Source: Nannocystis sp. RBIL2 (GTDB taxonomy: Bacteria; Myxococcota_A; Polyangia; Nannocystales; Nannocystaceae). Taken from it: a stretch of DNA of 64,000 nucleotides. Below, piece after piece: positions 54,043-54,445 of the stretch. Within the stretch, counting starts at the first letter, position 1. The number at the start of each line of letters is the position of its first letter. Made by a program: the position numbers and the translations under genes. The stretch lies in assembly GCF_026626745.1 (NCBI RefSeq), contig NZ_JAPNJW010000002.1, positions 1,382,151 through 1,446,150 of the forward strand. Reading direction: 5' to 3'. The notes beneath the pieces were generated by a model. It made no database searches, was not told the DNA's origin, and was given only the letters and a program-made list of their open reading frames with translations.

Positions 54043-54238
54043 ATGGCCTCGGCCTCCGCGCCGCCGCGGTCGCCTGCGAGAGGCCGATGTAATTCCGAAT
54101 GAAGATGAGCCCACAGCCCCGTGAGCTCTCTCCCCTGGCCCCACGTCCGTGCGAAACTTTTCGACACAAGGAGACAGACACATGACTGCCCATAACTCGA
54201 AGGGCCCAGCCCCAATTCAGGTCCCGGCGTCCGACAGC
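54043..54238 (+). repeat. Modular 5' element, copy A
   Basis: Same architecture as copies B-D (hairpin, 24-bp core, MKM uORF, RBS, leader codons). Confidence 0.7.
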
Positions 54239-54445
54239 CCGCTCCAAGCAGGAGCCACCATCACCGGTGTTATCGTCAACATCGACCACCAATCACGTTG
54301 GGTCACCGTTCACGCTGGTCTGAAGTCTGAAGCACTTATCCCGATTGAGCAGTTCTACAACGATGCTGGCGAACTGACCATCAACGTTGGGGATGAAGTT
54401 CAGGTCGCTTTGGATTCGGTTGAAGATGGGTTCGGCGAGGTCTAG
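54182..54445 (+). CDS. Leader-fused fragment of ribosomal protein S1 (domain 1 only); probably non-functional as S1
   Basis: After the leader: [64 protein letters not shown], then a stop. Aligns residue-for-residue with E. coli S1 30-95 ([33 protein letters not shown]...DGFGET). Confidence 0.6.

Follow-up and report, generated by a model that had tools for sequence, protein, structure and literature searches.

A Pseudomonas-type ribosomal protein S1 fragment in frame behind the leader of a putative mosaic gene family in Nannocystis

Genes which take up pieces of other genes are known from several systems. Pack-MULE and Helitron transposons in plants capture gene fragments, and the integrated decoys of plant NLR proteins are selected target fragments. 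Polymorphic toxins and Rhs-type systems combine a constant N-terminal part with swappable C-terminal cassettes. Synthetic dominant-negative protein fragments are known as laboratory constructs (PMC9245647). For ribosomal protein S1, the N-terminal segment (residues 1-18) anchors S1 to S2; S1 depends on it for docking: neither S1(19-106) nor S1(19-557) bound to ribosomes, and domain 1 lacking residues 1-18 left translation uninhibited (PMC4288201). In this study, we analyse a 64,000-nucleotide (nt) stretch of contig NZ_JAPNJW010000002.1 of Nannocystis sp. RBIL2, hereafter the window, and in it the open reading frame (ORF) 54182-54445, which joins a leader shared with two nearby genes to a fragment of S1 domain 1. 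With a probability of about 0.6, we propose that a foreign rpsA piece captured by recombination lies in frame behind the leader of a mosaic cassette family in which useful pieces are kept. The elements of this ORF are:

54161..54245, + strand: shared leader of 85 nt, comprising 5' untranslated region, ribosome-binding site, ATG 54182 and 21 codons
54182..54445, + strand: S1-fragment ORF, 87 amino acids (aa), family leader fused to an S1 domain-1 fragment, without the hairpin module described below
54242..54438, + strand: rpsA piece of Pseudomonas type acquired by capture, equivalent to nt 52-248 (codons 18-83) of rpsA

The product of the ORF contains 65 residues of S1 domain 1. Pfam model S1 (PF00575) matches about residues 22-86 with 24.7 bits, above the gathering cut-off of 22, and among NCBIfam models the 30S S1 model NF004954 scores best (E = 2.5e-21). 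In a phmmer search against the PDB, residues 22-86 align with E. coli bS1 residues 19-81 (E = 7.5e-19). The AlphaFold model shows a four-strand core (residues 26-76) and a disordered leader, and its top Foldseek matches are E. coli S1 domain 1 (PDB 2mfi, 4toi, 9guu). The S1 match is far above chance. An AAGGAG ribosome-binding site (54168-54173) is located 8 nt 5' of the ATG, and residues 1-20 are the leader. An identical protein is recorded at NCBI as a 'MULTISPECIES' S1 RNA-binding domain-containing protein of Nannocystis sp. ILAH1, on two contigs; exact-protein look-ups of the window's own genes found none on record.

Concerning its origin, the piece 54242-54438 is a xenologous fragment of a fluorescens-group Pseudomonas-type rpsA, namely domain 1 without the N-terminal docking helix. 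In blastn, it is 84.3% identical to Pseudomonas helmanticensis rpsA over 197 nt, ungapped (E = 4e-60), and only 72.5% identical to E. coli rpsA. At the protein level, identity reaches 88% with Pseudomonas S1 and about 60% with that of E. coli, and after the ILAH1 protein the next-best database matches are Pseudomonas S1 N-termini (88% identity). Moreover, an unusual two-residue insertion of the YQARW type is common to the piece and to Pseudomonas S1. The GC content of the piece is 0.53, that of the donor 0.52 and that of the window 0.70; GC at third codon positions (GC3) is 0.59 in the piece, 0.57 in the donor and 0.75 in the 20 leader codons. Because nt identity, GC and GC3 fit a Pseudomonas donor and not the 70% GC host, the piece was evidently acquired from outside and recently, and is not a decayed native gene.

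The homology has sharp limits. It starts at rpsA codon 18, with S1 residues 1-17 absent, and ends at ~54440. The closest S1 protein aligns through DGFGE and no further, the stop codon of the ORF follows directly after the piece, and the 275 nt of 54446-54720, searched alone, find nothing among S1 residues 81 onward at E <= 10; extensions seen with more distant S1 proteins are alignment run-on. The piece is an S1 domain and not an rpsA gene: the ORF has one S1-like stretch, as against four to six tandem domains, and no second such stretch exists anywhere in the 64-kb window. It is flanked by the remnant of an IS66 transposase and by a GSCFA/WcbI/glycosyltransferase operon; Pseudomonas rpsA has cmk upstream.

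An earlier note, written from the letters of the window, had described an S1 domain-1 fragment behind a shared leader and had preferred homology to convergence. The fragment is borne out by Pfam, NCBIfam, phmmer, blastn and AlphaFold/Foldseek, and homology by the 84% nt and 88% aa identity to Pseudomonas. Its alignment with E. coli S1 residues 30-95 was homologous as stated but off by about ten residues, the numbering being about 19-85. The leader is real as well: as direct-repeat family D2, 54161-54245 recurs at 59426 (89% identity) and at 58625 (71%). The 22-nt pattern of ribosome-binding site and ATG occurs 3 times in the window, with 0 expected. The leader DNA pattern had 0 matches in species-representative genomes and, in metagenomes, a single chance match in unrelated low-GC DNA.

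The two further copies of the leader belong to two paralogs, so that three genes of the set (54182, 58646, 59447) lie within 6 kb:

58646..59029, + strand: paralog 1, with leader, hairpin module 58763-58885 and a 'PPNGSPIGDDY'-type tail
59447..60001, + strand: paralog 2, with leader, module 59555-59677, eEF1A-like insert 59678-59782, module 59783-59890 and tail

Both paralogs have the leader motif of the S1 ORF, which is similar to the GRGPAPI(A/T)VP leaders of members from Streptomyces and Kitasatospora. What defines the family is a 41-aa module, ADARDKLLAAIGAEAQHLAEKSAGQASTALAELAHAFALVT, present once in paralog 1 and twice in paralog 2, with the consensus (E/D)ARDKLLAAIGAEAQxVAEKSAGQASAALAELARAYALVT and a predicted two-helix hairpin structure. 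A six-frame hidden Markov model search of the window found modules at 58763, 59555 and 59783 only, and none in or after the S1 ORF. With paralog 2 as query, dozens of hypothetical proteins with the same module were found in Streptomyces, Kitasatospora and Embleya. A profile search (profile A2) of 1.84 billion cluster representatives yielded 195 clusters, almost all of them actinomycete. Named hosts are Streptomyces, Kitasatospora, Embleya, Nonomuraea, Nocardia and Nannocystis, the latter being the sole non-actinomycete among the named hits. Module and architecture counts refer to the best 150 matches of this search. The module is present in 149 of these (one copy in 124, two in 22, three in 1 and five in 2), and in 25 the unit is repeated two to five times.

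A typical member consists of a leader (…EGIQQIPAQITV…PAA or …GRGPAPITVP…), the hairpin and a tail of 25-60 aa. There are two leader types, GPAPIxVP and IQQIPAQITV. In AlphaFold models the hairpin is helical (pLDDT about 80-88) and the tail behind it disordered. The genes often stand in tandem, two to four to an array. Recurrent groups take in 124 of the 216 variable segments found behind the first leader, with types common to several genera. Both Nannocystis paralogs have tails with actinomycete counterparts: the type of paralog 1 is found in 6 actinomycete members as well, and that of paralog 2 reads 'NEVAIDGSVTV..RYL'. Searches with the module against Pfam, NCBIfam, PADLOC, PHROGs, PDB sequences and, by Foldseek, PDB folds returned no relatives, the family profile had no match in viral contigs, and in the literature no described equivalent of the leader-hairpin-cassette family was found. 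The family is unannotated, and the phenomenon at the family level appears to be new.

Many of the variable segments are short pieces of conserved proteins of other organisms, mostly of kinds which the host lacks. Fragments recognised in members include flagellin, RNA recognition motif (RRM), Hsp70/DnaK, porin, phage tail tip, VgrG/gp5 OB and PAC3, and a CS1-type pilin cassette is among the recurrent types. Inserts can be large: flagellin inserts reach about 220 aa, with N- and C-terminal helices of flagellin both found in members, and one insert is a whole RRM. In paralog 2, the insert 59678-59782 stands in frame between the two modules and corresponds to residues ~97-133 of EF1A of the eukaryote/archaeon type, closest to apicomplexan EF1A; this insert type occurs in Kitasatospora and Streptomyces members, too. 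Nannocystis makes nannocystin, an eEF1A inhibitor, and this overlap is possibly a coincidence. EF-G is represented by a domain II piece and by a piece of residues 46-76. Cassette RGTQIAGPVPREVAEMWPKIAQS is near-identical to the C-terminus of microsporidian uL14 (PDB 6zu5, 7qep); uL14, IscS C-terminal-tail and baseplate-J N-terminus cassettes occur in proteins P0154, P0162, P0279 (Streptomyces), P0161 and P0128. Junctions often lie at the end of helix 2 or share a few residues, for example EF1A …ALLA… to module …KLLAA….

Two observations on single members may be added. In a Streptomyces gene (L003:11015-12427), flagellin helices are split in frame by a hairpin and followed by a second leader and module, and the product ends exactly at the Rhs core tip (…DPVNRVDPTGH); Streptomyces is a non-motile genus. 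The stretch 'FADLFEESLK' of P0258 had been considered as an S1 N-terminal docking helix and was rejected, since it aligns with EF-G residues 46-74.

S1 domain 1 is represented a second time in Nocardia protein P0176, by a piece between leader and hairpin, with EF-G domain II after the hairpin. The Nannocystis and Nocardia pieces are 84% and 80% identical to Pseudomonas and 77% to each other. Over the 126 nt compared, they have 5 nt states in common which differ from P. helmanticensis; a Y-to-H change just upstream of this stretch is common to both, and their boundaries are nested. Both pieces derive from one donor lineage, whether the region was captured once and trimmed afterwards or was taken up twice. 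In neither case is it a random choice that S1 domain 1 became the captured part. Inserts in actinomycete members have a host-like GC3 (mean 0.75) and are therefore older, the Nannocystis S1 piece being unusual in its freshness.

Selection was assessed on the module and on two cassettes. Module copies differ by 0.42 at third codon positions, as compared to 0.27 and 0.19 at positions 1 and 2, and pairwise ratios of non-synonymous to synonymous substitution (dN/dS) are 0.13-0.73; the module is therefore a selected protein element and not a DNA repeat. In the eEF1A insert, half of the synonymous sites but 14% of the non-synonymous sites differ between Nannocystis and Streptomyces (dN/dS 0.17), and CS1 tails have dN/dS of 0.11-0.53. 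Judged by these substitution patterns, purifying selection acts on the hairpin and, among the cassettes, at least on those of eEF1A and CS1 pilin, so the encoded peptides matter.

On the explanation we favour, foreign DNA, possibly cDNA of abundant mRNAs, would be joined into disordered gene parts by illegitimate or microhomology-mediated recombination. In-frame pieces which prove useful would then be retained and exchanged between family members. The S1 gene would be a very recent product, because its codon composition has not shifted toward the host, and its hairpin would have been lost or never present.

The surroundings of the ORF are rich in remnants of insertion sequences (IS):

50622-50765 and 62314-62457: inverted IS4/5 (DUF4096) remnants, 144-nt repeats, 76% complementary
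51421-51762: IS66 Orf2
52612..53805, + strand: IS66 transposase C-terminal remnant (Pfam DDE_Tnp_IS66, E = 3e-29), adjoining the S1 ORF upstream
54086-54107, 54711-54732, 58376-58397 and 59319-59340, no strand assigned: 22-nt motif GATGTAATTCCGAATGAAGATG, 4 matches with 0 expected

The IS4/5 repeats flank about 11.7 kb, on which the S1 ORF and the family genes are accompanied by the polysaccharide operon, an OsmC-like gene, IS66 Orf2 and the IS66 TnpC remnant, a layout which resembles a composite transposon. Each of the three family genes has a copy of GATGTAATTCCGAATGAAGATG upstream, and so has the GSCFA/WcbI/glycosyltransferase operon. The motif is followed by a GC hairpin which scores as a minus-strand terminator at two copies; its substitution pattern fits coding on either strand, a minus-strand reading 'IFIRNYIG' being equally compatible. 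An upstream ORF running from the motif to the main ATG was considered and found not meaningful, with TGA within ATGACTGA in both other frames. The 78 nt of 54041-54118 are 94% identical to 58331-58408, which suggests a segmental duplication of the whole unit. These 78-nt stretches belong to remnants of minus-strand TPR-like genes (ORF 53818-54183, - strand), just 5' of two family genes. An Rfam scan of 53700-60200 found nothing, no rRNA or tRNA pieces were detected at the window locus, and a sigma-70 promoter scan found nothing.

Among about 18 loci with family genes, the only recurrent neighbours are generic ABC ATPases and lectin/beta-propeller proteins, the latter at 4-5 loci. In the window, 48598-50151 (+ strand) encodes a 517-aa protein whose C-terminal domain is a jacalin-like lectin and whose N-terminal part is unannotated; the lectin/beta-propeller neighbours in actinomycetes (tectonin, hemopexin, PLL-like) have no sequence similarity to it. 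One of the Streptomyces loci encodes a protein (L014:15604-17688, - strand) with four hemopexin-like repeats and a short match to a fungal PDR/CDR ABC-transporter motif, possibly a further mosaic containing pieces of eukaryote type. A truncated terpene-synthase-like ORF (Terpene_syn_C_2, partial) lies downstream of the family genes at 60862-61533 (+ strand), and terpene/prenyl genes adjoin family genes at loci L007, L014 and L001, too. Further islands of low GC (0.53-0.56, against 0.70) are located at 20901-21425, 46826-47400, 26376-26650, 29826-30050, 20226-20475 and 48301-48625. The ORFs which overlap them have no Pfam matches, and the islands may be other foreign or intergenic DNA.

Several points weigh against the explanation we favour. 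The S1 ORF lacks the hairpin which defines the family and, since this is absent, belongs to the family by its leader and by nothing else. Its locus is an IS-rich zone of rearrangement with other truncated genes. The dN/dS of the S1 piece against Pseudomonas is 0.07, a value which mostly reflects evolution inside the genuine rpsA and from which selection after capture cannot be read. Most tails in the family have no recognisable source, and the bias toward conserved, abundant proteins is partly a detection bias. Finally, none of the about 18 loci showed a secretion signal, a delivery system, an immunity gene or a conserved neighbour.

This last result bears on function. The hairpin could be a constant scaffold or handling module presenting a peptide which resembles a segment of a foreign protein, and which interferes with that protein or binds its partners in competitors, prey or parasites. 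Such mimicry fits the sources, because these are conserved, abundant parts of translation, chaperones, motility, pili and phage-like structures, mostly of kinds the host lacks. As a weapon, however, the peptide would have no delivery route, given that no secretion, delivery or conserved partner gene occurs at these loci, and the S1 gene itself may be non-functional because its hairpin is absent. Mimicry is the mechanism we think most likely, but we advance it as a tentative and rather doubtful proposal. Still more speculative is the idea that soil actinomycetes and Nannocystis display fragments of enemy proteins on the hairpin as a heritable library open to exchange, a protein-level analogue of repeat-spacer memory. 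Fragments would be captured from Pseudomonas, other bacteria and eukaryotes of apicomplexan and microsporidian type, the mimic peptides would poison or trap the matching machinery, and the Pseudomonas S1 piece of the window would be a freshly acquired 'spacer'. We consider this improbable.

The rival which survives best is that the S1 ORF is inert debris, a chance in-frame chimera which illegitimate recombination produced from Pseudomonas DNA of the environment at an IS-rich hot spot, with no function of its own, irrespective of the role of the family. The missing hairpin, the stop right after the S1 piece and neighbours such as the IS66 and IS4/5 remnants, the truncated terpene synthase and the TPR-like remnants are all what debris would show, and a GC content not yet shifted to the host implies a recent capture with little time for selection. 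Yet the S1 piece is fused in sense orientation and in the reading frame, with an intact ribosome-binding site and leader immediately before it, the same S1 region stands between leader and hairpin in the Nocardia member, and other cassettes are under purifying selection. We regard debris as possible, though unlikely.

Fragments might also originate by reverse transcription, in trans, of abundant foreign or cellular mRNAs, a route which would be compatible with the capture of useful pieces we propose. Highly expressed genes dominate the sources (S1, EF-G, EF1A, uL14, Hsp70, flagellin, pilin, porin), but conserved proteins are the easiest to recognise and the bias may be one of detection. Moreover, no reverse-transcriptase gene lies near any locus examined, and rRNA and tRNA pieces were not detected at the window locus. 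This origin has a low probability in our view.

Lower still we place the reading of the family as precursors similar to ribosomally synthesised and post-translationally modified peptides (RiPPs), in which leader and hairpin would be the recognition element for an enzyme encoded elsewhere, the tails would be cores and captured fragments new cores. A conserved N-terminal and a hypervariable C-terminal part, tandem genes, multi-unit precursors and tails predicted to be disordered are all in keeping with such a role. Against it, the about 18 loci hold no conserved modifying enzyme, peptidase-transporter or RiPP recognition element gene nearby, though an enzyme may act in trans, and inserts such as the flagellin of about 220 aa or the whole RRM are large.

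The earlier note had seen in the ORF the pseudogenised 5' region of the organism's own rpsA, with a product competing with S1 at the ribosome. S1 domain-1 homology behind a good ribosome-binding site made this a natural suggestion, and a capture behind the shared leader did take place. Nucleotide sequence and GC are Pseudomonas-like, however, so that the source is not the native rpsA, and with codons 1-17 missing it is not the 5' end of the gene either. The resemblance noted after the stop (LIVRRK to LLSREK) dissolves, no homology being found there. The fragment was held to be the ribosome-docking part of S1, but the docking helix is precisely what is missing. Competition for the S1 site is unlikely, because the piece starts at residue 18 and the docking residues are absent; S1 without residues 1-18 neither binds nor inhibits (PMC4288201). 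Taken as a whole, we give this view hardly any credence. Equally remote is an assembly or contamination artefact joining Pseudomonas reads to Nannocystis, as the abrupt GC drop at the piece might suggest: the piece spans only 197 nt, its identity to known Pseudomonas rpsA is no higher than 84%, host sequence continues its reading frame on either side within a 6.1-Mb contig, its protein is recorded as MULTISPECIES on two contigs, and it has analogous mosaics in many independent actinomycete assemblies.

If the pattern of the family holds, bacteria would repeatedly domesticate short in-frame foreign pieces under selection, a mode of gene innovation and possibly of antagonism for which we found no bacterial description in the literature. 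The cassettes provide defined peptides with presumptive targets, among them S1 domain 1, eEF1A 97-133, EF-G 46-76 and the C-termini of uL14 and IscS. The Nannocystis S1 piece is young, with an identifiable donor clade and both junctions intact, and can therefore show the process of capture. Even if it were debris, it would represent gene transfer on the scale of a fragment, from Pseudomonas to a predatory myxobacterium.

Compared with known systems, the S1 piece has 65 homologous residues and the predicted four-strand core in common with domain 1 (OB1) of the bS1 encoded by E. coli and Pseudomonas rpsA. In contrast to bS1, it comprises codons 18-83 only, lacks the S2-binding helix and domains 2-6, and is fused to an unrelated leader. 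With dominant-negative fragments (PMC9245647) and the S1 N-terminal peptide (PMC4288201), it shares the concept of a fragment which inhibits the interactions of its parent; unlike that peptide, the natural Nannocystis piece lacks the inhibitory segment. The ALF repeats of UmbC, a component of the Streptomyces umbrella toxin (PMC11062931), are likewise Ala/Leu-rich two-helix elements, of 43-44 aa as compared to 41 aa, from the same host clade. Kinship with umbrella-toxin UmbB/ALF was considered and not supported: no sequence relation was detected, and searches of the PDB, where the structure published for the umbrella particle should be deposited, gave no match with the family profile or with a five-module member.

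RiPP precursors have the constant leader and variable core in common with the family, and differ in their linked processing genes. CRISPR and integron arrays differ in that the family repeat is translated and under purifying selection, with no cas or integrase gene in the listed loci and no Rfam match. As to diversity-generating retroelements, the called genes of the loci examined had no RVT Pfam match, template/variable repeat pairs not having been searched systematically.

The likeness to polymorphic toxins and Rhs-type systems extends to the constant N-terminal part, the swappable C-terminal cassettes and the tandem arrays near IS, and one family member even ends in the Rhs core tip. Unlike in these systems, searches found neither trafficking or toxin domains nor immunity genes, family members had no toxin or immunity matches in Pfam and PADLOC, and the cassettes are fragments of housekeeping and structural proteins. 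Pack-MULEs and Helitrons differ from this bacterial family, whose unit contains no transposase, whose donors are other species including eukaryotes, and which has a scaffold in its 41-aa hairpin; common to both is that pieces of unrelated genes are picked up into chimeric products.

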